DNA of 62,934 bases, filler included, from Collodictyon triciliatum (Eukaryota), in the NCBI GenBank assembly GCA_043381765.1. It is 5 parts of 5 records of this genome, joined end to end, with 100 filler letters (N's around TTAATTAATTAA, not from the genome) between each part and the next. Parts side by side here need not be neighbours in the genome. Positions count along the whole stretch, not along the records: positions 1 to 12,515 come from JBHJMP010002147.1; 4 more parts are not named here. The stretch is one strand, 5' to 3'. Positions 2,462 to 37,735 of this stretch are shown here, one piece after another. Both the position numbers and the translations under genes were made by a program. The notes under the pieces were generated by a model that had not been told where the DNA came from, did not search any database, and saw only the letters and a program-made list of their open reading frames with translations. Each line of letters begins with the position of its first letter. Positions within the stretch are counted from its first letter, which is position 1.

Positions 2462-2665
2462 TGACTGGACAAAGACATACCTCCTTCCACACACAACACG
2501 ACCCAACACCCCCACCGTACGTTCTTAGACCTTTACTTCAGACCATCGGGAAAACTAGGAGCCGCCAATCCACCACCCCTCCCCTATCCTCCAAGTAGTA
2601 GATCGAAACAGTTCCCTTTCCCACGGATTTTGTCTTTCGTCCCTTCCATTTTCAACTGCATCTGA
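2462..2665 (+). mobile_element. Possible divergent LINE ORF2 C-terminal remnant
   Basis: C-rich island in AT-rich DNA. It translates as LDKDIPP...HRTFLDLYFRPSG, loosely similar to AEKDIKP...RMQFLITDYFSAIRP of the 7171-7908 LINE ORF. Confidence 0.3.
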
Positions 2666-3346: not shown

Positions 3347-3530
3347 CCTGGTCTTCTTTATGCAAGCACAAGACCCAAACCACCGACCAAACCGCAGGAT
3401 GCAATTCCTGATTACCGACTACTTCTCCGCCACCCGGCCACCAAGTAGCGTCCATGCAAACGATGGCTAGCGAACCAAAGCCAACATCTCCACCGTCCTG
3501 CACAAAATGGAATGGAAGAATAAAAGAAAA
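3347..3530 (+). mobile_element. 5'-truncated LINE (3' end of ORF2 plus 3' tail) with degenerate target-site duplication
   Basis: Close nucleotide match to the reverse complement of ~7200-7330 (MQAQDPNHRPNRRMQFLITDYFSATRPPSS). It ends in GAATAAAAGAAAA and is flanked by AAATTGTCGAAAATTTTGT (~3328) and AAATAGTCGAAAATTGTTGT (~3528). Confidence 0.8.
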
Positions 3531-4389: not shown

Positions 4390-5448
4390 TATGTATAAAC
4401 GAGGGATTGATTTTTTTCCACCAACAGGCGAATCCCATGAAAAAAAGCCGAGTTGAGAAGAGAAAAGCAAACAGATCAAAAACGAACCTGAAAGCAAATC
4501 CAATTTCTAAGAGACGTTCTTAAAGTCTACGTTTGAAGGATCTCCATCGAAGTGATCTTACTGCGGGCAGAGCAACCAGAGATTCAATCACCCCGAAGCT
4601 CCTAGAAAGCATCACAAACCGCATGAGATTGGAATAGAATTCACTTAAAATTCTTAGTAACAGCAAAATGGATAGTCAGTTAAAGCTTCCATAAAAAAAT
4701 AAAAAAAAAATAGAATCAATGATATTTCATATAGTGTGTATGCGTGGCCAACGATGTTTTGCGACAGAAAGACTCGGAAATCCGGAATAGCCCCAGCTCT
4801 CCTTGGCTTTCGAATATTTGTAATGATGAGGGTCCTAAAACCTTTGCAGGAAGGAGGAATAGTTGAATTTAATGTTATTTGGATATGTAAATAAGTTTTC
4901 ATGGGTTTTGAATTTTGAGTTTTGGTCGGTTTGTGCGCAACATAACCCAGGGATTATGCTGGGCAAGACTAGAGTCATTCACATGAAGTTTTGCTGAAGG
5001 GACTCATCTTTGGCCCGTTCTTGTTTCTTTCATTTTATTTTTATTTGCCAGCTGTTGATAGACTACCCTATTCTCGATCAAGTCTTCTGACTTTCTGACA
5101 TAGGTAAAAGACTTGCTTAGGTATAAACCTCCGCTTTTTGTAGAAAAGAAAATAAAGGTATGTTTTCATGTTGTATTATTCAGTTTGCTTGACCTTATGT
5201 TGATCGGTGGTTTTTTTTTGTGTTTTGTTAAAAATAATGAGTGTCCAAGCAAAAGGGATTCAATAGATCAGTTGTATTGTGCTGGTCTTTTGGCTTTTGT
5301 TCTTGGTTGTCTGTGTGCTTTCGTCGGTGGAAATGTGCTTGTTGAGTGATCTGCTATATACACAGGTGAGCCGGTTTTTTTTTTTTTTTTTTTTTTTTGT
5401 TTTGTTTACTTTGAAATTGGGTGGGGTGTTGAAGAAGANNNNNNNNNN

Positions 5449-6815: not shown

Positions 6816-7149
6816 TTTAAATCAGACAATGAATGCGCAACCAGTAGACGCAACATGTGAAAGTCGCTAATTTTATTTAAAAAAAGACTTTCAATTTGGA
6901 TATAATGCTGTATTTGATTATTTTTTTGGATTGCTATTTGATTGAATGCCTTTTGCCCGTGATAAATATATGTATACGAACTATGCTGACTCACTAAAAC
7001 CTATATCCTGAGTAACCTCATTCCACCATTTGATGCAAAGCTCTGTTTAAGTGCATCAAAAAGAATCCATCGCGTTCGTATATTTATTTTTCCACAAAGT
7101 CCAAGTCAAAGCCAATTTACTTTGCTTCTAAACCCATCTTACTGAACCA

Positions 7150-7830
7150 TTCTTTGCCATTTCATTTTGTTTATTTTTCTTTGCGTGTGGAGATGAAGTT
7201 CCTGTCTCCAAGGTGCCAGCCTTCTTTTGCACTAACGCTACTTGTTGGCCGGATGGCGGAGAAGTAGTCGGTAATCAGGAATTGCATCCTGCGGTTTGGC
7301 CTGTGGCCTGGGTTTTGTGCTTGCATGAGAGATACAAAGCGAGGTTTAATATCTTTCTCAGCCTCTTTCCACATGTTTCTTCTCACGGGGTCTGAGTAGT
7401 AGAGAACGTGCAGGCGGCGAAGGAAGTCATTGAGGAAAGAGATGTGTATGATGTCATCCAGCCTGTTATCAGGAATGGGTGGCTGGTTGTTGAATCTTGC
7501 CTTGCGTGAGTATATGGGTGCTATCCACATAGTCCATAGCAAATGGCCTCGCGTCACTGCCCATAATGTTTTTGCATCTGGATGCAGCTGTTGCAGAGGC
7601 CCAAATATGGCCTGGATTGGGCCAACAGCCGCAGCCGTCTTGAGTGTCAGTCGAAGAATCTCGCCAGCTGTTTCGCGCAGGTTTTGAGCGAACGGACATT
7701 GCACAAATGTGTGCTCAATGGATTCATCACCGTTGCTGCAAAGTGTGCATTGTTGCGAGACTTTGCCAGCTTTTGTCGCGCGTGTGCCTATCCATAGCTC
7801 CCTATTGATGAGATGATATAAAGCAGCCGA
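7150..7830 (-). mobile_element. 5'-truncated L1/Tx1-like LINE, ORF2 C-terminal region with zf-RVT-type CCHC zinc finger
   Basis: ORF 7171-7908 contains CTLC-x5-SIEHTFVQC and a ...LLWTMW... motif typical of the L1-clade ORF2 C-terminus. Related copies lie at 3347, 20560 and 42086. The ORF's N-terminal ~25 aa look like flanking DNA. Confidence 0.85.
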
Positions 7831-9388
7831 AAACATTGCCAAAGCAAAATAAATGCAAACCATATCATAAAAAAAAGCAAATGATTCACTCTGTATAATA
7901 TCGACCATATAATATTTTGTGTTCTCTTATGAATGTGGCATGTGAAAAAAGAGAGAACGAGTATGAGTCGTATGTTATGCCATCCCGCCTAGTAGTGTAT
8001 ATCCAAAACAACATGTCTTATGGTATATGTCCAGTGATAAGTAGCATTCAGTGGCGTCCATTCAGTCGTGTGCCCCATCAAGACGGATTGAACACAGTTC
8101 TATTATATTCATAAATATAAAGCTTCTTGAAACATATACCATTTTTTACTGTCTACTTTTTTGTATCATAAATATTTGTGTGCAACGCGACTGGGCAAAT
8201 AACAATAAAGCAAAAAATAAGAAATTGACTCTACCTTTGCTTTGCAATCTCCAAAAAAACACGTCTGATATGCTTCGCTTCTTTGCTAATCACTTGTATT
8301 TCTTTTTTGCTCTTGTTTTTAGGTCATAGAGCTCATATTTGTTTGACGCTATAATCCGCCCATTTGTCTACCAATATATATTAACGTGCGATTTCATTTG
8401 GTGTTTTTCTACAGTGTTATGTCGAGAAACCAAATCCGTAGAAAACGTTTTTACCTGTGGGCACATAAATTTACACAGGCTAATTTTGAAAGATATTTTT
8501 TAATTTTTTTTCTTGATTATTACATATGTTGAAGTTTATAATGGTGAATAGGTTAATAACTAAATAATGTTTTCAATATATATAGACATAGTCACATGAA
8601 AATTTTTAGTAGGCAGCCAACTTATATGACTTTTTGGAGGGTGCTTACTGTATGGATAGCTTGGTTTCTTCGTATCGAGGATTTTATAGATGTATAATCT
8701 GATTTACCTTTTTAATACCCATTCGGACTTGAATACTGTATATAAGCAACATATTACAACCAACATATCGATATACTTTTTCATGAAAAAAATTAATCAA
8801 ATACAATCAAAAATTAAAAAATATTCGTAATAAATCAATTTAAAAAGGATATTGCCAATGCTGTCAGGAACTCTTTTATAATTATGAAATAAATATTTGA
8901 TTGCTTTCATAAGCATGCTTACGATAAAGAATACCAACAGTGCGAGACTATCTTAAGTCTATGAGATATTAGTTGTAAATTGATCATTCAGGTTATCGAG
9001 CAAGATTAATACATTATGAAACATATAAAACAGCATACAATTTTTAATATATTCATACAAAATATTTTTAATTATATGTCATGGCTAATGCATTGTTGGC
9101 TTTGTATATGTAATCATCATACGCTGAATAATCAAAATACAGTCCCTATGAGACTGGAATATCGATACTGTTGTTCACTTAAAAATTATTAATAAATCAA
9201 TACTCCATGAGACACGCTAGCTGTGACGTTGACCACGAAGTCGAGACCACGGCGTAAAGGAATGACTATGTAAATTATTATTTTCTCTCTTTTTTTAATT
9301 TGTATAAGCCTCGATTGTTTGACCTGACATAGTAATATATTGTTTAGATGCATTTAAATAATCATACACATAATCGATACGATTATTT

Positions 9389-10383
9389 TGATACCAGAAA
9401 ACTGATATAAATCAGCAAAAGAACGTTGGTAGTTATGAGACCCTGAAGAGGAACCAAGCCGACATAAAACCCAAGAGAGCTGTCCTACTGTCATATGATA
9501 TTTCTTGGGGCGCTAATCTTACAAATAAATCGAAGAAATCAAAAGCATATGAAACCCATCTCATTAAGTACAAGCGTATATATATAAAATGGAATAATAA
9601 AACTTTAGATATAGTTATCCAAACAAATAACAACTGTAAACAAAACAAATAAAAAATGGGAATCCACCAAAACATCATCGCTAATGAAATACCTTGCACA
9701 GGACATAAAACCATAGAAAAATTACTTCTTAAACTTACAGATATTTTTCTGGTATAATTGTGAATAATTGCAAGATTGTACCTACTACAAAATAACCAAA
9801 TATAAAGAAAATCCCTGTGTTTTTGTTTTACCTTTCAATCACTTACTCAACCGCACCACTTATTGTTTTTATATATCATAGTCTTTACTTAAATGACACT
9901 TGCATTGAAGAATATAATAAACGTCTGACATATACAGGTAATAAAAATCCTTGAAATCGTATTTAAGGTAACTGATTTGTGGGTACTTTTATCAACCCGA
10001 CAATTTTATCCGCCCTTCTGTCAGTCTCGAACACAATATTAACCCGCGTTGGATTTTTTTATTCATGACGGAATAAGATGTTGGCGCCCGTTCCTACAAT
10101 CTTAAAACCATGTTTGATTTAACCCACTTCAGGAAGAAAAAGTCTGCGTGTATAAACACTTTGCTACCTTTCTTTTTCAACAACCGGTTTATCTTTTCTT
10201 ACATTCCTATTCACATCTTTCTATCTATCTTTTATTTTTTATAAACAAAAAAATCCAAATATATAAAGTTCAAGTTTTCCACTTTCTCATCCGTATCTCG
10301 TTTTTGTCCTAGAGGCGCAGGCGGCACCTCGAATTTGTTTTCTATTAGTAAATAGTTGAAATGAAACCAAGGAAAATAAAAAA
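9389..10383 (+). mobile_element. Non-autonomous LINE-derived element (degenerate ORF2-like segment plus shared 3' tail)
   Basis: Apart from a divergent 3' part, it matches 36538-~37203 closely. The 3' part matches the tail of the ORF1 element (36250-36534), including the GAGG..CCTC hairpin and A-rich end. One frame reads KPKRAVLLSYDISWGANLTNKSKKSKAY, resembling the L1-clade post-RT 'LPK..GGLGL.D...KA' motif. Confidence 0.7.
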
Positions 10384-11854: not shown

Positions 11855-12515
11855 TTTTTTTTTTTTTTTGGTTTCTTTTCAACAGTTTATTGAGAGAAAA
11901 AAAAGCCGAGGAAACCGCCTTCGCCTCTAGGACAGAAATGAGCTGTGGACAAGACAGTGGAAAACCCCAGATTGTGTGGTTGGAGTTTTTGTGTTTTGGG
12001 AGAAAGAGAGACAAAAACAAAAAGAAAATAGAAAGGAGAGAAAGTGTTCTCACACGCAGACTATTCTACCCGAGGTGAATCAGCTCCAACGCGATTTCTG
12101 GTTGTATTTATAACTGACAGAAGAGCGGATAAAGTTGTCGGGTCGATAAAAATACGCACATGGCAGTAACTTCTCAAATCGATTCCGACGAGTCCTTTCA
12201 ACCATCTATCTCAGACAAGTTTTACATCCTATTTCATTCCACAGGATGAGTAATTTTGGGGAGACAACGGGTCACTTTCCTTGCATTTCTTGCTGGGCGA
12301 CTCTGACAAAAAGCGATACATCGTTGTTTGTCTGGTATTAACGGAAGTGGCGCTTGACCGTCCCACGGTTTCGGAACCATGCGTATTTGGCAGTGGACTT
12401 TGCTTTACCGGATTATGGATACGCGTTTGTGGTTTTAGAAACATACGCTCCTGCTTGCTCGGACTGTCTTTAGTGTGTGAAGTTCCAAGCTTGGATTCGA
12501 CTTGTGCTGTTTGCT
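11855..12515 (-). mobile_element. 3' part of the ORF1-only LINE-like element (cut by contig end)
   Basis: Near-identical reverse complement of 35889-36534 (…FLKPQTRIH…QTTMYRFLSESPSKK, 3' tail). The poly-A tail appears as poly-T at 11855-11869. Confidence 0.9.
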
Positions 12516-12615
12516 NNNNNNNNNNNNNNNNNNNNNNNNNNNNNNNNNNNNNNNNNNNNTTAATTAATTAANNNNNNNNNNNNNNNNNNNNNNNNNNNNN
12601 NNNNNNNNNNNNNNN
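12516..12615. other. Artificial contig-joining linker (44 N + TTAATTAATTAA + 44 N)
   Basis: The identical 100-nt six-frame-stop spacer recurs at 25125, 37736 and 50342 and separates contigs of about 12.5 kb. Confidence 0.97.
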
Positions 12616-18730: not shown

Positions 18731-20559
18731 TCGTTCCATTTTAGAAAACTAAAAAAAAAAAGGACATAAATATTGTTATTGTTTTCCTCATTTTTTCATC
18801 TTGAAAATTTGACTTGTATCATACACTGTTAGAAAATAGCAAAAATAAGTCATCATCAAACCCTGGTCGAATCCGCAATCCTATCTGTCATACCCGAAAC
18901 AGTATATTCGAGCCTAAAGGAGGGTCAGGAGCTGGCGATATCTCAGTCACCAGCTTGCTGCATCATTTGCGTCGAATTTATGGGAATTCATGAGCTATTA
19001 AAGCCGTTGCCAGTAGAAAAGCGCCTCTTGGAATTGCAAAGTTGGTTATGTTTTTTCATTATAGACAGCTACGAAAATTTTTGTTTCATACATTTTTTTC
19101 TTACGATACTTTTTTTAGATTTGTTATGCGCAGTTAAGAAAGGAGCTCAGTTCCATGATGTTGAATGTGTTAGGATATTTAATGCGACTCTGGTGGTATA
19201 GATAATTGCTAATAAGCTATTCTTGATATAATTCATGAAAAAAATAATTTTTTATTCTTCCTTTCAATTACGAATGGCAATTGTAATTTATAAAAGTAAT
19301 TTTACATGAGTTTGGATGTGGCCATTGTTTATTTTTCGAATAATAATAATAATAATACTGTACAGCTTACCTGTGGATTGCATAAAGATAGTGCCAATGC
19401 AGTTCATAAATCTCTTAATTTTTGCTTGCAGGCTAGTTATTCTTAAATTCTTATCTTTTATTTTATTTTATTTTATTTTTGTTAAATTTTTATGTAAATC
19501 CCTAATCAATCCAAATAGGGAGTTTTTTCTGGAAAGGAATGCTGAGTACCTAAAAACTAAATAAAGAAAAGTTAATTCATTTCAAATGCAATATAGTTAC
19601 CCTTCATCATCCGAAGCTCAGATACAACTTTTCAGAAACACCCAGAGATACGCATGGTCGTAGCGTATGGAAGATTCAAAAATGGATTCATTAGTAGGAT
19701 AATTATACACATAAAAGTTGTATACATTCCAATAATACTAGGGCATGCAAGTTAAAATTGAAATCCCCAAAATCTCAAACAAATTAAGATAAAAATGAAT
19801 AAATGAGGTAAAAACAAAAATACGGACGTTTAAGGCTATTAAAATTGAATTTTTGACTCGAACAGATAGTACAAGGCTTTCATTTGACGTATGGGGAGAC
19901 GTGGGTATGTAAATATGTGAACATATTATGATGCTAGACAGGTTAATTATCTTATATCTTTTTCTACAACTACCACCAATTATCAGTTAATCTGGTGATC
20001 TAAACTGTAGTCGATGAAGGGATGAAAATGCTGCAAAGTACACAGTGCAGAGAAATACAGGTAATATGGTTTTGTTTTGTTGAGTACTCTGCACTATGTT
20101 TTTACTGGGTTCATGTTCTCATTACATTATGATTATGATAACGATAATAAAAAATCCTTTATTCGATTCAGAGTTTTAATGATAGTATAGATTATGATAA
20201 TACTAATTAGAAGCTGCCTTATGATAGAACCTGAAAAGAAAGAAAAATACTTATATGCAGATATCGCCATCCATCGCGAGCTTTGTGAATGAACGTGCAG
20301 AATATAGTGTATTGACAAAAGTTGTTGATGGCACTTTTCATTATTACTTGGGGCATATCGTCGACTTTTGGAGGCACTACACAAAACGTGTGTTTTCGTT
20401 GGAATAAAAAATAGGTCCTTTCCAGCATGTGAAAGTACATCGATTCAGATGAAAAAATACAATCAAAAGAGTGAGAACTGAGAGTCTTTCCGTGCAAATT
20501 GCTGAAAACATTTACTTGTTCTTTATGTATAAAATCATGCTCAAAAGTGACAGAGTCTA

Positions 20560-21050
20560 CCCACAAGATGCTCTCTGAACTTGATAATGCTCCCAACCGA
20601 CTCAGCGCATCTGACATCCTGTTTGGCGCACAATACCAAATGACCCACGACTCTAGAATACTCTGGACAGTCACAAGGGGACATATCTTATTGTCCTTAT
20701 GGAGTGTGCGTGCATTCTCTCGCTCCAATGATTCGACTGATCAAGAAATCAAGTATCCAGGCTAGAAAGCCACGTGCATTACAGCTTCCTGAACGGCCTG
20801 CTGAAACACGCTCGCATTCTTCTCTACTCTGACCGCAAGCGAAGAGAGATGTGGGAATGTGTCGTGCGATATCTCCCACAGCATATTCAACCCCTGCTAC
20901 CCACGCAACAAATCAACCAGTCGGGACGCCCACCTGACCAACTCGCTATCACTGATTTCTATCCAGTGCTAGCCTCTTCACGGTAGCGTCTTCTCTTACT
21001 CGCGTTTGCTGTCTTCCATGCGCTCCTTTTATTCACTCTTATTATGGCTA
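20560..21050 (+). mobile_element. Degenerate LINE ORF2 C-terminus, a divergent relative of the 7150-7830 family
   Basis: ILFGAQYQMTHDSRILWTVTRGHILLSLW aligns with AIFGPLQQLHPDAKTLWAVTRGHLLWTMW. HYSFLNGLLKHARILLYSDRKRREMW aligns with HISFLNDFLRRLHVLYYSDPVRRNMW. The frame is interrupted near 20765. Confidence 0.8.
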
Positions 21051-21138
21051 GATTCTTCTCAAAACTGAGTCGAAATAAGGACAAGTTTAAAGAAGGCACG
21101 AACGAGGCCCTGTTACGAGAGAAAAGTGGTTCTTTTTT

Positions 21139-21923
21139 TTATTTGGTCTCATCAAAGGAGGGATTTGGTGCGTAGATAGGAATATTTCGACCTATATTGC
21201 GCGGATATATCTTTGAGTTTAATTTTGCAACTCTCTGCGTGAAAGTATCTTCGTTGGGATAAGAGCTGCCTTCTGGCGGAGCCCATATGAAAGTGTTTGG
21301 AATGTCGCCAGCAGATGCAGGTTTTTCCATCTGGACTGGGACTTGAAAAATAAACCCCCGCCCCTCGATGTCCCTTTCCACGTCTCTGGTTTCCGTCAGG
21401 TCTTGGGCCAGTGCGCGGTATCCTCGCTTGATGTGAAAGGCTGCTTTCTTCCATTTCTTTCCCATTTCCTTTAAGAAAGCTTTGTTGTCAAAAGGTAGTC
21501 CTTCACGGCGCTTCATCATTCTCATGTGAGAAACAAAAGCCATGAACGCATTTATCGGGCGCTTATTCCTCTCCCTTTTCAACGCCGTCCTCATTGATTG
21601 GCGTTCTTCAAGCCCCAAAGGACCTGGCTCCGTCTCTCCCAACATACTCTGCACTTGTTCTCCTGTTTAATACAAACGATGTCTAATTAAAACAGCGTCA
21701 GATGACCCTTATTCCAATCGAGACAAAATAAATTGAAGCAAAATGCAGCCAACAAACACAAACCTGTTTCTGGCCCAGAAAATGATGCAACATTGAGCTG
21801 TGCACTTTCTGCAGTGCTTCTTTCATACATTGTTTCTCTCTCATACCTGAGACCGTCTCGTGAGATTTTGTGACATACAGACGAAGGTAGTGACTTGAGT
21901 TCATGGCGGCTGGCTGCATCCAT
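21139..21923 (-). CDS. Single HMG-box transcription factor (SOX/TCF/MATA-HMG-like); one intron at ~21664-21764
   Basis: RNKRPINAFMAFVSHMRMMKRREGLPFDNKAFLKEMGKKWKK...YRALA matches the HMG-box consensus. Splice ACAG|gtttgt...aaacag|GAGAA keeps frame. The start may be at 21923 or 22013. Confidence 0.85.
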
Positions 21924-25124: not shown

Positions 25125-25224
25125 NNNNNNNNNNNNNNNNNNNNNNNNNNNNNNNNNNNNNNNNNNNNTTAATTAATTAANNNNNNNNNNNNNNNNNNNN
25201 NNNNNNNNNNNNNNNNNNNNNNNN
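25125..25224. other. Artificial contig-joining linker
   Basis: 44 N + TTAATTAATTAA + 44 N. Confidence 0.97.
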
Positions 25225-28621: not shown

Positions 28622-31600
28622 ATGACGTAATATTTGTAAAATCAAAAAAATCATCAATTAGAATTAGTATCTCATTGACTTTGCATACAGAAGTTCAAAG
28701 TTGTTGGTTGCGTTTGTTGTCATCGCTTTTAAAGTGGCATCTGCATCCTCAATTCACCCACATCAAAGGTATATTTTGATTTATCACGATGTATAAAATA
28801 CACTTTGGACTCAAATAAAGAAAACAGATGTGATTATTCAAGAGATGAGTTGCTTTCCATGAAAATCGAAGATGCATTCCAAATTCTGCTGAGCTACTAC
28901 GATGAGGCATGTCCTTTGTTAAAAGCAAGTGAGGAGAATTTTTCAGGATTGATGAAGAACCACAAAGATGGAGAATACTCGCTACAAACTGAACATGGTG
29001 CTGGATGGAATCATGAAAGCAAGGAGCTCAATACTGACTTGAGTGCCTTCGTTTACAATCACTCACCAAAAATAAACGGGAGTGAGCAGTTCGTTTTTGG
29101 TGATGAATTGAGCCGAAGTGTGGCCGATAACAATACCATGAGTCAATACGAACTCCTCGTTCAGCTTTACCAAATACTTGGAGGTGATAATTGGTTTCAG
29201 AATACCAGGTGGAACAATATAAACATTCCGATTTGTGAATGGTTTGGGATAGGGTGCCATCAAAGCTGTTCGGTTGAACAATATTGGGTAAGTACTTAAA
29301 TAATTATAAGCTTATTTTGATATTTGTTTAACATGTTTATGTTACGTTTATAGGATAATACATGCCCTATATTAAGGATCAGTATGTCAGGAAACAAGAT
29401 TAATGGTGACATTGAAGCTGCCTCTGCAATTTTCGAGAAGCTCCAATTTTTGGATTATTTGGACGTTAGCTACAACTTCATTTACGGAAATCTTCCAGAC
29501 TTAAATCTCCCAAGTATTACGTATTTGAGCCTTTATGGAAATGGAATTACCGGAACGATTCCAGACTTTCAAGCAATGCCGAATATTGAACATCTTGAGA
29601 TTGGTGGGAATGAATTGGAAGGAACAATACCGGATTATTCTGGAATTCAGTTGTTGAAGAGCTTATATATTAGTGGAAGTGAAAAAACCAAAGGTATCAA
29701 GTAATTTTTAATATGATTTTTTTATGAATCCTAATGATATAATTCTACTCAGGAACTCTTCCTGATTTCTCGGGATTGCCAAATGTTCAGATTCTTGGGA
29801 TTTATGAGTGCAACATTCATGGTATATTTTTTATTCGATTAAATGTGATAGTATACAAGCCTAACTTGTATTTTTTCAGGCACAGTTCCAAACTTCAGTG
29901 GCATTCCAAAAGTTTTTGAGATGTTTCTTAACAGCAACCAATTGACTGGTAGTTTTATGATTATTTCATACATTTTTTCAAATAAAAGCTAACATTTTAG
30001 AACAGGGACAGTTCCAGACTTCAGTGGAATTTCAAACATTAAATACATCGATCTTTCGAATAATCAATTGAATGGTAATTTTCTATGATTATTTCATGTA
30101 TTTTTGATAAAAACACTGAATTTGTCTTACAGGAAAAGTTCCTAACTTCAGTGGAATTCCAAATGTTTTATGGGTTTATCTTGACATCAACCAATTGAAT
30201 GGTATGACTTTATGATTATCTCATATATTTTTGAAGGAATACTAACTTCATATTACAGGAGCAGTTCCAAACTTTGGTAGAATTCCAAATGTGGAAGTAG
30301 TTGGGTTTTCCATCAACCACATGACAGGTATGATTTTATGATTATTTCATAGATTATTGAATGAATACTAACTTTAAATTACAGGAGCGGTTCCAAACTT
30401 CAGTGAAATTCCAAACGTTGAAATGATTGCACTTTACAATAACCATTTTAATGGTATGATTTTATGGCTATTTAATGTGTTATTGAAGTATTAATAATTT
30501 TTTATTACAGGAACGGTTCCAAACTTCAGTGGAATTCCGAATGTTGAAGAGATTTATCTTTCCAACAATCGATTAACAGGTATGATTTTATGATTATTTC
30601 ATTTAATATTGAAAACTGATTAACTTCATTTTAAAGGAACGGTTCCAAACTTCAATGGCATTCCAAATCTTAAAGGAATTTATCTCCACAATAATCATTT
30701 GACTGGTATTATATCATGATGGGTTTCATTTACTATTGAAGGAATATTTTTTTTCCTTTATTCGATCTATTGAAGGAATATTAATTTTGTATTTAGGAAC
30801 GGTCTCAAACTTCAATGGAATTCCGAATGTTAGGATGATTGCGCTTTACAATAACCAGTTTAATGGTATGATTTTATTATTTTTTTTCCTTTATTAATGG
30901 TATGATTTTATTATAATTACATGCATTATTGATGAAAACTAACTTTTTATTACAGGAACGGTTCCAAACTTCAGTGGAATTCAGAATGTTGAATGGATTT
31001 TTCTTCACAACAACCATTTGACTGGTAGGTATTTATGTGTAAGGAGATGTCCTTTTATTCTGTTATAAGCTTGTTCTATGATTCTCAACCTATTAACGAG
31101 TCGACGGACTCGTTTAAAATCCCTTGAACAAAGGGTTCAGGGGAGGTTTCTGAGAACGTTCCTGGAGCGTTCCACGGTAGTTTTTTGAACTGATTATAAG
31201 AACATACCGGGAGAATTCCGAGATGGGTCTTAGAATTAGTTCAGAGACTCCAAGGACGCACTTGGGTGTCCAGTTGTTACATTATGATAGACTTATTTCG
31301 ATTATTGCAAAACTGACTTTATGTTACAGAAATTATTCCAAACTTCAGTGATATCCCTATTCTCGAATGGATTCAACTTTACAACAACCAATTGACTGGT
31401 AAGTGTTTAATGTTTATTTCATGTAATATTGATACCGAACTAACTTTATACTATAGGAGCTGTTCCAAACTTCAGTGAAACTCTAAATGTTATGAGAATT
31501 GATATCGGCGGAAACAGTTTGAATGGTCAGTTCTTATTACATTATTTTATTTTCATACTTCCTTTAATTTTAAAAATTGTAATTTTAGGTACGATTCCAA

Positions 31601-34452
31601 AATTTTCAAATCTGCGTAAACTGGAAATTATTTCTGTTCATAATAATCAGTTGGAGGGAGAAGTTCCAGATTTTAGAGATTGCGAAAACATCAAGGAAAT
31701 AGTATTGTTCCGAAATAAGTTGTCGGGCACATTGCCAATGTTTAATCTTAATAGTCTGACTAGGCTGGATGTGAGCGAAAACCAAATCAGTGGCTCTATT
31801 CCAGAATACTGGAATGTGCCTTCAATTCAATACATTGACTTGTCGTGGAACCACATGGAAGCCACAATACCAGATCGCTTTCAGGAATTCTATGAGCTGA
31901 AGTCACTCGTTTTATCCCACAATAAATTCTCTGGAAGCATGCCGAGGCAATTCTGGGAACTGCCGAATCTAGTGACGATTGACTTGAGAAACAACTCATT
32001 TTCTGGAGATATTGGCATCTTCGTCGTTCCAGATGATGATGAATACGATTATTTTTATGAAAACCTTTTGCTTGATGATAACCAATTGAATGGAGAACTG
32101 AATTGGAGACTTTTTAACTATATTATCAACGTAAAAAAATTAAGTTTGAAGAACAATTATATCACGAGGATTGATGAACTTACAAATCTTATTACATGGA
32201 CTTCCCTTGACCTCACCGGAAATCCGATTGTCGGCAATATTCCTGAATCTTATGATTTATTCATCAAGCTTGAGTATTTAGGCTTGAAAAATACGAGCAT
32301 GAATCATGGTTCCTCATATTTTCTTCCCTTCTTTATGAATATCACTGACTCCTACAATTTGGAAAGGACGACAGACAGGTATGCATGTCCTTCCGTTGTC
32401 TCTCGTTCAGGTTTGATTGAAATGGAAGTGAACATGGACCCAAAGTATCACGACTATGGGATGTGCAAATGCTTACCTGGTTACTTTGGATATGGAAACA
32501 ATTGTGTGAAGTGTCCAAGAGAATGTGAATGTAGTGATGGCGTTTCCTTAGAAAAGTGCTATTTCACACCAGACGTTCTCAAGATAGTCCAGATAGTTCC
32601 GTGCATGAATCCGGACGTGTGCAGATTTTACATTCCAGAATCAATGTCAGAGAGAATGCTCATTAGCAACAATACTTATGATTTTCCGTGTGAAAAGGGA
32701 TATACTGGGAGAAGTTGCTCTATTTGTGAGGATGGATACTTATTTGAGGATGGAGAATGCAACGAATGCTCTTCTGATTACTCAATACTCAAATTGATTG
32801 CTTTCTTTGTGCTTCTCACAATTGGTGGGCTGTATCAAATTGGTTTGGCATGGATTGAAGAAAGCATGGATGATAACGGAGACGATGAAGTAAATGAGGA
32901 TGAGCATGATTCAGGTAATCTAATTTTTATTATAAATTCTTATTTCTTTTTTATTCCATTTCTTTTTCCATTATGAATGCATGTTTCTAAAATTATGTGA
33001 TATCACAGCCTCCCTAGACATATTTCTGTTTTACACTCAAATTCTGCAAGTATTGGGGAACATTGTCTCTTTATCCTTCATAACATCTGCTGGGAGATTT
33101 GTAAGCAACCTGTTTTCACTAAAGTTACCTTCCATTGAGTGCATCGTCGGCAACAAACCGCACATTACATCGATTCTTAACCTTTCTCGCATTCCTTTTA
33201 TTACTTCTGTCGCTTTCCTTATCCTGAAGAGGACACTTGTGAAGAAAGATACAAAAAATATCGAAAAGGTGGGATAAAAGCATCAGATAGTTTTTATAAA
33301 ATGATCAATTATATTTTCTCACATTACATTAAATATCGCGTATAATTATAGGTTGTTGCTATTACATTTACATTCTTGGAAGGAACATATTTTTCTGTTG
33401 TACGAGATGTTGTTGGTGCTTTTGGTTGCACCCTCTATGATGAAGGACTGGATACATGGTTCGTAAACTTGTATCCTTGGATTCAGTGCAGCCCGGTGAC
33501 AGATAACTATGTAAAGTTGCTTCTCTCTGCTATTCCTGGCTTGATTTACATATTCCTGTATCCCAGCTTTCTATGGTACATCATTTTAAGAGCCAGGAAA
33601 TTGAGGCAAAAAGAAAATGGTATCCCCATGGAAAGGCTGAAGAATCTCGGTGATGATCAAGAGATTCCGGCTACTGGGGTAAATTTGCCTGACAAGGTTG
33701 TAAGTGAAACTGGGCCAAGCGATTCCGAGAGACAAATACCTCAATACCATCATGCATCGTCAGATAATCGTGTGGATTTGTCCATGAACCCATTCCAAGT
33801 AGCATGCCAGATTCTGATCAATCGATTTGCTGATATTTACGAGGAGGTAATCATTATATACCAATCGCATAAAGGTGTGATGAAATTACTTATTCTCATT
33901 ATTTAAAAAGAAACGCGACTGGTGGGTCATGGTTCGAGTTATTCAATCAGTTCTCTTCAGTTTGACAGCTTTTGTCGTCCCTTACACATACTCAGCCATC
34001 CTCTACTTTATTTTCTTCATTCTGATACAGGTTTGTTGTTATTTTTACATATGTATCATTGTCCATTTAATTAGGAAATTTATCTTGTTGATAATTTTAA
34101 TTTTTTATAGTTCTCCCTATCGATGCAGAATCGGTACCAGCCATACATTCTTGATTCGGATGACTCTTTTTCCACGAATTGTTGGTTGCTGCTGTACATC
34201 TCTTTCTTTTCAGCTCTCGTTCAAAAACTTCTGCCTGGAAACGATTGGATATCATATGCGATTATTGGACTAAATTCCATTTTCATTACAGCTTTTATTG
34301 TTCCTTTTGCATGGACTATACTGAAACCTCTGTTAAGTTGCTTTTCAAGAAACAATTTCGGGCTAAGCAAAAAAAGGATATCACATTTCAAAAGCAAAAT
34401 AGAAGCTTACAAGGAAAAATTCGCCAACATCGTCACGAATCACACACAGTGA
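28622..34452 (+). CDS. LRR-containing receptor-like protein: signal peptide, LRR N-cap, many LRRs, Cys-rich (EGF/furin-like) region and multi-pass (about 7) TM domain; 21 exons in this model
   Basis: Spliced model: ATG 28622 (MTSSKLLVAFVVIAFKVASA), N-cap NW..NTRW...CEWFGIGC, twelve 69-nt LRR exons at 29753-31525, exon 31589-32914 (LRRs plus CKCLPGYFG, CEKGYTGRSCSICEDGY), then TM exons to TGA 34450-34452. All junctions checked are GT-AG and keep frame. An upstream in-frame start at 28403 is also possible. Confidence 0.9.
29753..31525 (+). repeat. Tandem exon+intron array (unit about 126 bp) of single-LRR exons
   Basis: 69-nt exons start at 29753, 29880, 30006, 30133, 30259, 30385, 30511, 30637, 30797, 30956, 31330 and 31457. 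The introns are homologous (GTATGATTTTATGATTATTTCAT...CTAACTT..TTACAG). Confidence 0.95.
31038..31281 (-). mobile_element. Solo LTR inside an LRR-gene intron
   Basis: 244 bp bounded by TGTAA...TTACA, with a perfect 5-bp TSD TTATG (31033-31037 and 31282-31286). TATA-like and AATAAA motifs lie on the minus strand. Confidence 0.8.
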
Positions 34453-34769: not shown

Positions 34770-36534
34770 AAGTTCCATATGGGTAAATGAAAGCTTCAAC
34801 CAAGCTTCCTGCGCCGAATGAAAAACGAAAAGCGAACCGTCGAAGGCTTTGCAAGTTGCAGCCAGTTCTTCTGCTTCCAACACTGGCGCGTAAAAACCAC
34901 GAGTTGCACGTAAGTCTAGAAAGATCCGTGCAAGGAAGCCGCCTGCAAGTCTGTCTGATCGGACAGTATTTTTGCACGGGGTCGAGCAAGTCGTTTACAA
35001 CAAGAACAAGGCCCACAGACTCACAGATACGCTCGCCTCCTTCTTGAAAGCGAACAAATTTTGGGAAGAGTCCATCCAACTGCGCTTACCGGACAGCAAA
35101 GGCATTTGCCTGATTGCCTTCCGCACTGCAGAAAACGCCCAAAAGCTTCTGGAGCTGAAGCAGATAAGTTTAAGTGATATTACGAACAGCTTCAGCAGAA
35201 GTAAACCAACAGAGACCTCGGTGATGCTCTACCAACTACCGCTGGACGTGTGGCTGCAACACCTTCGTGAGGAGCTGAAGCCGTTCAGACCGACCCACGT
35301 GGAGATCAAAAAGGACAAAGGCTTCTTCACAGACACAGCCGTGGTGAAGCTTCTCTACCACAAGAATTAGCTCCCTGAAAAGTTTACGGTCATGGGCAAA
35401 AAGTGTCCAAAGCGCATTCTCAAAGAGCGTCCACCAGCTGCAATAACGAACGACAAGTAAAAGCCCCGCAAAAGAATACACCTGCCAAGCAGATAAGCAG
35501 CAACGGGTCAAGGAAGCCAAGGCCAGGCAACAACTGAGCCCGCAAGACTCACAGCAGATACACGCATACAGCGACAGCAACGATGACATGGAAGGAAATC
35601 TCGGTTCCTCTTCAGAATCCTCGCACTCGAGCCCTCCATCGCCAATACTGGACAAGCCCGAACATCGCAAGACCCAAGAGCAGCGCATCTCCAAACCCCG
35701 AAAGAAATCCCCCCTTAAACTACCCATTCAGACTGATGTGAATATGGTTAACATAGGAGGCCTCAAGGCAGTCTTCGTTGCTCATCCGAAAGGATACTCC
35801 AAAGCAAAGGCAACACAAGAACCAGCGCCCACCAAAGATAGTCCGTTTATCCTGCCCCAGCCCGTCGCACCGAGAACCAAGGAGCATGAGCAAACAGCAC
35901 AAGTCGAATCCAAGCTTGGAACTTCACACACCAAAGACAGTCCGAGCAAGCAGAAGCATATGTTTCTAAAACCACAAACGCGTATCCATACTCCGGTTAA
36001 GCAAAGTCCACTGCCGGCTACGCATGGTTCCGAAACCAGGGGACGGTCAAGCGCCACTTCCGATAATTCCGGACAAACAACGATGTATCGCTTTCTGTCA
36101 GAGTCGCCCAGCAAGAAATGAAAGGAAAGTGACCCATTGTCTCCTCAAAAGACTCATGCTATGGAATGAAATAGGATGTTAACCTTGTCTGAGACAGATG
36201 GTTGAAAGGACTCGTCGGAATCAATTTTGAGAAGTAACAGCCGTGTGTGTACTTTCATCGATCTCACAACTTTATCCGCTCTTCTGTCAGTCTCGAATAC
36301 AACCAGAAATCGCGTTGGAGCTTATTCACCTCGGTTAGAATAGTCTGCGTGTGAGAACACTTTCTCTCCTTTCTATCTTGTTCTTTCCTTCACCCAAAAC
36401 ACAAAAACTCCAACCACACAATCCGGGGTTTTCCACTGTCTTGTCCACAGCTCATTTCTTGTCCTAGAGGCGAAGGCGGTTTCCTCAAATTTATTTTTTG
36501 TCAATAAACTGATGAAAAGAAACCAAAAAAAAAA
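34770..36534 (+). mobile_element. LINE-like element carrying a degenerate ORF1 (RRM-type plus low-complexity tail) directly followed by a 3' tail and poly-A, with no ORF2
   Basis: RTVFLHGV...ICLIAFRTAENAQKLL...VMLYQLPLDV...LREELKPF...TAVVKL...LPEKFTVMG resembles L1/Tx1 ORF1p RRMs. There are in-frame stops (e.g. TAG 35368) and a frameshift near 35440. Poly-A lies at 36525-36534, and a second copy is at 11855-12515. The 5' boundary is approximate. Confidence 0.75.
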
Positions 36535-36537
36535 TTC

Positions 36538-37203
36538 TGATACCAGAAAACTAATATAAAAAGCAAAAGAACGTTTGTAATAATGAGACCCTGAAGAGAA
36601 ACCAAGCCGACATAGAACCTCGAGAGAGCAGTGTTACTCCCATAGGATATTTCTTGGGACGCTAATCTAAGGAACGTAACGAAGAAATTAAAAGCATATG
36701 AAGCCTATCTCATAAAGTAGAAGCGAATACATAAAAATGGAATGATAAATCTTTAGATATAGTTATCCTAACAAATAACAACTGTAAACAAAAAAATAAT
36801 AATAGGGAATCCACCACGATATCATCGCTAATGAGATACCTTGCACACAACATAAAACCATAGACAAATTACTTCTTAAACTTCCAGAATATTCTTTCGG
36901 GCATAATTGCAAATAATTGTATGATTGTACCAACCGCAACATAACCAAATATAAAGAAAAATCTCTGTGTTTTTGTTTTACTTTTCAATCCCTTGCTCAA
37001 CCGCACTATAAATTGTTGTTATATATCATAGTCTTTACCTAAATGACACTTGCATTGAAGAATATAATAACTCTGACACATACAGGTAATAAAACTCCTT
37101 GAAATCGTTTTTAAGGTAACTGATTTGTGAGTACTTTTATCGACCCACAATTTTATCCGCCCATCTGTCAGTCTCGAACACTGTGTGAAACCGCGTTGGA
37201 GTT
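36538..37203 (+). mobile_element. Second copy of the ORF2-derived non-autonomous element
   Basis: Matches 9389-~10053 from the same 5' start (TGATACCAGAAAACT) through CGCGTTGGA, then diverges. Confidence 0.8.
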
Positions 37204-37735
37204 TAGCAACTCAGCTAGAATTACCTATTGCAAGAATACTTTGTTCCTACTCCTTTATTGCACCTTTCACCTTTCTTCCCTCTGCTACCGCACCCGCCAC
37301 CGAGACTGGGAGCACCACAGCCCGAACAGACGCCGCGAAATCATGACTAATATGGATGGAACCCCCCTATGTGTGGAAAAAAGCAAGACAAACCCAGCAG
37401 CCACGTTGTGTTTCGCCGAAGCGGAGGCGAAGATTCGACAGGCCCTGCGCGAGGTTTCGCCTGGCGGGAGGACGGAAGCCTTGAAGAACCGCCAAACGGT
37501 GTCCACGTGGTGTTGATCCACCCGCCATAGCGTTTTTCTGGGGCGATGCTCTATGTTGCTTCGATCTGTAGTCACTTTTATTGCCTTTCTTTTGCTTTCC
37601 GTACTTATTTGCGCGTGTGATCTTTTCTTTTCTTTTCTTTCTTTTCTTTTTTTTTTTTTTTTTTTTTTTTGCAGACCCATTTCCTCCCTTTTTCTTGGTT
37701 TGTAAGGGGGGCCCTTTTCTGGCAACATCAAACGC

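Follow-up and report, generated by a model that had tools for sequence, protein, structure and literature searches.

A conserved PIP-box-like motif in the ORF2 tail of an L1-like LINE family from Collodictyon triciliatum, a probable tether to PCNA

Three fragments of an L1-like LINE lie in the window (the whole 62,934-nucleotide stretch of Collodictyon triciliatum DNA that was analysed), and all three carry, in the tail of ORF2, a short peptide that fits the canonical PIP box, as the initial annotation had proposed. Across subfamilies with 33-54% identity to the ORF of copy 1 (P0001) the motif is kept while the surrounding spacer is not, which agrees with the conservation claimed in that annotation, and we consider it probable that the tail is a PIP box of the high-affinity type that tethers ORF2p to PCNA.

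The window consists of five pieces of ~12.5 kb joined by linkers at 12516-12615, 25125-25224, 37736-37835 and 50342-50441, each of them identical (44 N, TTAATTAATTAA, 44 N), so that any adjacency across the junctions is artificial; copies 1 and 2 of the LINE are in piece 1 and copy 3 is in piece 2. Re-reading of the sequence bore out the tail at 7249-7284 on the minus strand (RRMQFLITDYFSAIR), which is in frame with a stop-to-stop ORF of 251 codons at 7171-7926 (minus strand; P0001), as well as its counterparts at 3402-3437 on the plus strand (QFLITDYFSATR) and at 20939-20962 on the plus strand (QLAITDFY). The features of the three copies are as follows:

7147-7811, minus strand: copy 1, subfamily A, a 5'-truncated 3' LINE fragment (5' break at 7811; 3' boundary approximate)
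7696-7749, minus strand: CCHC zinc knuckle of copy 1 (C60, C63, H72 and C77 of P0001), inside the zf-RVT match
7261-7284, minus strand: PIP-box core QFLITDYF of copy 1 (P0001 residues 215-222)
7249-7260, minus strand: SAIR, positions +1 to +4 after the copy 1 core
7216-7218, minus strand: TGG codon of copy 1 at the place of the copy 2 TAG stop, an apparent stop loss
3348-3520, plus strand: copy 2, subfamily A, a very short 3' fragment (stop TAG at 3468-3470)
20517-21080 (about), plus strand: copy 3, subfamily D, a 5'-truncated 3' fragment (stop TAG at 20984-20986)
20939-20962, plus strand: PIP-box core of copy 3, QLAITDFY; PVLASSR and then the stop come next, and no K/R stands at +4

Copy 2 has its PIP core QFLITDYF at 3402-3425 (plus strand) and SATR at 3426-3437, reads ...RRMQFLITDYFSATRPPSSVHANDG with the stop directly after, and matches copy 1 over 112 nt at 88% identity, with indels beyond. 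Copy 3 is much more diverged than copies 1 and 2 and reads ...QLAITDFYPVLASSR, again with the stop directly after; it contains a frameshift near 20745-20756, and its 3' end is approximate, being the point where homology to L001 stops. Neither the RT nor the endonuclease of the LINE family was found in the window, where tblastn with every relative led to these three places only, and all three copies are thus 5'-truncated 3' remnants. The initial annotation had also pointed to a "weak echo" of the motif, RTFLDLYF at 2516-2539 (plus strand), which did not hold up: it is without the Q, I and T, and we rejected it as a family member because neither blastp nor blastn against all members gave a significant match (best E 1.5-1.9). 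Short matches to subfamily A tails are scattered collinearly around it (E 1.9) and could be an old, decayed copy.

The assignment of the ORF to the 3' part of ORF2 in an L1-like LINE was upheld both by a zf-RVT match and by a fold match to the wrist/CTD of human L1 ORF2p. P0001 matched Pfam zf-RVT at E 2.2e-8 (35.1 bits, cut-off 27.5), and the domain was present in all six relatives scanned. The AlphaFold2 model of the relative P0018 (345 aa, 18-row alignment) had a mean pLDDT of 63 and was confident over residues 107-320. When searched with Foldseek, this model retrieved human LINE-1 ORF2p chains at ranks 1-3 and 5, with weak E-values of 0.03-0.4, and VIA-align gave Z scores of 15.7, 15.2, 15.1 and 9.5 to human L1 ORF2p chains versus 7.0 for the best unrelated chain. 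In the best VIA-align match (8uw3_A 799-1265, Z 15.7, rmsd 4.0, 208 aligned residues), as in the others, model residues 67/99-318 correspond to human residues 799/859-1265. From these model-based matches we take it that the fragment is the wrist/CTD of an L1-like ORF2. In the ESM Atlas, P0018 found zf-RVT clusters only, from Streptophyta, Oomycota, Mucoromycota and Chlorophyta, and phmmer with the 32-residue tail peptide gave no match at E <= 10 among PDB chains of at least 20 residues.

Relatives of the ORF were few and short. A scan of 1.84 billion representative proteins returned 12 matches at E <= 0.001, nearly all of them short metagenome ORFs, and a scan of metagenome contigs yielded one locus among 175 pattern matches. 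Longer relatives numbered none among 491 candidates with P0001 as the query and none among 5263 with a profile query. RT, EN and zf-RVT occurred together only in P0012 (1275 aa; Exo_endo_phos, RVT_1 and zf-RVT), which is 26% identical and in which zf-RVT is below the cut-off (22.8 vs 27.5 bits). No full-length member was found in these searches, and RT and EN would presumably lie in the same ORF.

The conservation of the motif was assessed over the motif columns of 13 aligned tails (the three window copies, L001 and nine proteins) from a LINE family that is known from only ~20 short sequences, with the relatives forming about five subfamilies. The 4-5 subfamilies probably all stem from one host lineage. 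The form Q-x-x-I-T-[DN]-[FY]-[FY] is retained in 10 of the 13 tails, and the canonical pattern Q-x-x-[ILMV]-x-x-[FY]-[FY] is likewise found in ten, including all three window copies, while P0003, P0005 and P0007 fail it. The cores, each with the four residues that follow it, read:

Subfamily A: QFLITDYF-SAIR (copy 1), QFLITDYF-SATR (copy 2), QFLITNYF-SATR (P0017), QFLITDYF-SATL (P0008)
Subfamily B: QSVITNFF-SIIP (P0002)
Subfamily C: QTAITDFF-AVLH (P0004), QTAITDYF-AVLH (P0015), QTVITDFF-AVPR (P0018)
Subfamily D: QLAITDFY-PVLA (copy 3), QLAITDFF-PVLA (L001)

The deviating tails are those of subfamily E (P0005), which reads QYFNTPFF with N at position 4 and P at position 6, of P0003, which is without one aromatic, and of P0007, in which the motif is scrambled. 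These deviations count against the PIP-box reading, as do the absence of the motif from the distant relatives P0012, P0010 and P0013 and the number of subfamilies, which is only four to five. A further relative, P0014, drops out of frame just upstream of the motif.

When the motif was compared with its neighbours, using one representative for each of subfamilies A-D, the mean pairwise identity was 0.62 in the motif (30/48), 0.11 in the linker before it (9/84) and 0.17 in the seven residues after it (7/42); the last helix gave 0.22 and the CTD core 0.47. Of 125 eight-residue windows, only those of the TRGHLLW block and one at the IFGP block outranked the motif, which came 11th. Between subfamilies A and D the codons for Q (CAA/CAG), I (ATT/ATC), T (ACC/ACT) and D (GAC/GAT) differ synonymously, so that it is the peptide that is constrained rather than a signal in RNA or DNA. 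A six-frame search of the whole window found Q..[ILM]TD[FY][FY] three times, always in a LINE tail, versus a mean of 0.01 in 200 block shuffles, and the plain PIP pattern had 22 matches versus 8.0 in 200 shuffles. Since the plain pattern is common in this AT-rich window, which counts against the PIP-box reading, the weight rests only on the TD form and on conservation.

These figures also bear on the idea that the similarity has no function at the protein level and reflects chance, recent descent or a 3'-end RNA or DNA signal read by the reverse transcriptase. Some LINEs carry RNA signals near the 3' end, and the motif does lie close to it, at ~25-90 nt from the stop and ~120-190 nt from the 3' end of the element; the loose PIP patterns common in the window would also fit such an origin. 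However, the synonymous differences at the Q, I, T and D codons, the drop to 0.11-0.17 identity in the flanks and the exclusive occurrence of the TD form in LINE tails, at three seen for 0.01 expected, speak against it, and we regard this idea as highly improbable.

Parts of the window were found in at least 20 sequencing runs, mostly freshwater or lake metagenomes, with word shares of at most 0.25. Alignment of four freshwater metagenome runs at a likeness of at least 80% gave 3, 119, 30 and 61 contigs, and their summed depth rose up to ~450 over 7212-7811, vs ~4-6 in the flanks. Upstream of 7811 the other copies continue, and the sequence there encodes a conserved ...HRSLMLNI... region, which confirms the 5' truncation of copy 1. 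Many dispersed, 5'-truncated copies are thus indicated, given that all three window copies are truncated and that the depth in the metagenomes is high. At least 31 variant places fall between 7218 and 7811 in the four runs. Among the variants listed, the two longest stretches free of variation coincide with the zinc knuckle (7694-7755) and with the motif plus its near flank (7254-7304), which is only a hint. The I of SAIR is private to copy 1, being T in nearly all metagenome contigs (7253 A>G).

The initial annotation had placed the motif at the extreme C-terminus of ORF2, which needs to be corrected: beyond the last aromatic, copy 1 has 29 residues, copy 2 and P0008 have 14, and subfamilies B, C and D have 7-9, so that the relatives overall have 7-14 residues C-terminal of the motif. 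The apparent TAG>TGG change adds 15 codons to the ORF of copy 1, which then ends at a TAA at 7171-7173. Metagenome contigs diverge from copy 1 exactly at 7218, where their letters match copy 2, and this comparison suggests that copy 1 alone lost the stop and so has its long tail.

The tail appears to be flexible. In the AlphaFold2 model of P0018 the pLDDT is below 50 over residues 321-345, with the motif at 329-336, and in the model of P0017 the block means are 44-48 over residues 171-200, with the motif at 180-187, both models having been built from shallow alignments (18 and 5 rows, respectively). In both, the motif lies past the last confident helix in a low-confidence stretch, which corresponds to the disordered, accessible region expected of a PIP box as far as the models predict it. 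Short linear motifs are usually found in such a setting. The charge of the flanks (seven residues on each side, estimated by eye) is ~+4 in subfamily A, where three Arg fall within seven residues upstream of the motif, ~+2 in subfamily B, and ~-1 to +1 in subfamilies C and D. The flanks of a PIP box are expected not to be negatively charged, and positive flanks have been reported to raise its PCNA affinity; the Arg residues of subfamily A speak for the PIP-box reading and the about neutral flanks of subfamilies C and D against it.

The conserved peptide could also be a short linear motif for another partner, with a Rev1- or Mlh1-type pocket, or it could pack onto ORF2p itself or its RNA. RIR and MIP motifs require only paired aromatics, whereas the positions conserved here are all six that define the canonical PIP box, together with T5; in addition, AlphaFold2 does not dock the tail on the CTD, the predicted pLDDT there being below 50. 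The other-partner reading gains from published descriptions of an overlap between PIP-like motifs and the RIR and MIP motifs, by which partners including Rev1 and Mlh1 can be served, and of human L1 as an element that may contact PCNA through a folded site in the wrist domain and not through a PIP box. The service of PIP-like motifs to other partners, along with the dispute over the canonical human L1 box, counts against the PIP-box reading. On balance we rate a different partner or self-packing as rather unlikely.

In this family the ORF2 protein thus has, beyond a folded wrist/CTD resembling the human L1 ORF2p domain, a predicted flexible tail of ~25-35 residues whose sole conserved part is Q-x-x-I-T-[DN]-[FY]-[FY], which fits a canonical PIP box of the TD type, known for strong binding. 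If the tail is a PIP box for PCNA, as we consider probable, it would most likely hook ORF2p onto PCNA at replication forks or at the TPRT primer-template junction, and the docking would help integration to proceed and finish, a role that PCNA has in human L1. The motif, its frame, its conservation as a peptide, the L1-like fold and the low-confidence tail are established by the analysis; that PCNA is the partner, and that binding it aids retrotransposition, is what we infer from known cases: in published work PCNA co-purifies with human L1 and is required for its retrotransposition, Pogo/Tigger transposases bear PIP boxes, clamp docking is described as widespread among bacterial and eukaryotic mobile elements, and TD in a PIP box is reported to confer high PCNA affinity.

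The initial annotation went further and took the tail for a CRL4-Cdt2 PIP degron, in which case ORF2p docked on chromatin-bound PCNA would be ubiquitylated and then degraded, during S phase or following damage, gating or self-limiting retrotransposition. The published definition of this degron is Q/N-x-x-psi-T-D-theta-theta-x-x-x-R/K, with the basic residue at +4 described as essential. Copies 1 and 2 and P0018 share the Q-x-x-psi-T-D-theta-theta core of Cdt1, p21 and Set8 as well as the R at +4, and so have the full signature Q-x-x-psi-T-D-theta-theta-x-x-x-[KR]; TD is moreover reported to be rare in human proteins and to occur mostly in CRL4-Cdt2 substrates. The family as a whole did not support the claim, however, because a K/R at +4 is found in only 4 of the 10 intact tails (R in copy 1, copy 2, P0017 and P0018), the others having H (two tails) or L, P, A and A (four tails). 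T5 is present in all ten, D6 in eight and N in its place in two (TN in P0017 and P0002), and the full signature is left in three of the ten, from two of four subfamilies. The basic residue is thus carried by window copies 1 and 2 and is not conserved family-wide, and the poor retention of K/R at +4, set against the retention of T5 and D6, indicates that selection holds the PCNA-binding core and not the degron-specific residue. In addition, TD alone is reported not to cause degradation, and it is not obvious that selection acting on the element would favour a self-destruct tag. We therefore consider the degron unlikely for the family, and we are equally doubtful that the tail of at least subfamily A is a true PIP degron, one that would hold ORF2p on loaded PCNA during integration and afterwards have it removed by CRL4-Cdt2. 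If it were true, the element would be a retrotransposon with its own replication-coupled off-switch, which is undescribed for any LINE.

In line with the initial annotation, no described LINE with a C-terminal PIP box or degron was found in the literature searched, which lay mostly outside subscription journals. Pogo/Tigger DNA transposases are likewise mobile-element enzymes with a canonical PIP box, and the Pogo box is near the C-terminus and also of the I-T-D type; Pogo is, however, a DDE transposase of a cut-and-paste element and not a reverse transcriptase. According to published accounts, a two-hybrid screen identified Pogo as interacting with PCNA, and a high-affinity peptide was designed from its box, the function of which is described as unclear. 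Fen1-type C-terminal PIP tails resemble the LINE tail in being short, disordered extensions past a folded enzyme, with the box a few residues from the end, but they belong to host replication and repair proteins, and the Fen1 box is given in the published description without TD.

Human LINE-1 ORF2p is of the same L1-type ORF2, with a matching wrist/CTD fold, and how it grips PCNA is disputed between an internal PIP helix and a folded site in the wrist domain. In the human protein the proposed PIP box lies inside the chain, in the EN-RT interval (residues 404-419 or 407-415), on a helix described as packed against RT, and a structural study of 2025 assigns PCNA to a folded "PUB" site in the wrist domain instead. 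In contrast, the motif of the Collodictyon family is a TD-type box on a predicted disordered extension past the end of the human CTD, residue 318 of the P0018 model aligning to residue 1265 of 1275 in the human chain. If our reading is true, an independent L1-like lineage with a conserved PIP tail would point to clamp docking as a general requirement of these elements that is variously met, and the tail would offer a simple, peptide-level handle on the role of PCNA in target-primed reverse transcription. It would also add a reverse transcriptase, tagged at its C-terminus, to the mobile-element proteins that have evolved clamp-binding tags, as in Pogo/Tigger, Tn7 and many IS transposases.

Several other features were observed in the window, in which 10 further ORFs gave no Pfam family. 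Another repeat family links piece 1 (9385-10057 and 11860-12515) with piece 3 (35889-37204) at 87-90% identity in opposite orientations, and no protein family was found in the ORFs examined near it. Runs of N at 5439-5448 (10 N, followed by a long poly-A) and at 51167-51503 (337 N) are probably assembly gaps or withheld stretches. An open frame with an HMG box (PF00505, E 8.1e-7) at 21139-21666 on the minus strand adjoins the 3' end of LINE copy 3. Diverged tandem repeats occupy 29861-31037 (self-match offsets of ~126 and ~253 bases, 66-78% identity) and lead into a 510-codon frame with leucine-rich repeats at 31444-32976 on the plus strand (LRR_4 E 1.3e-19, LRR_8 E 2.9e-18). Lastly, a frame with a PHO80-type cyclin domain (PF08613, E 1.3e-13) at 56531-57163 on the minus strand is presumably an exon of a host gene.
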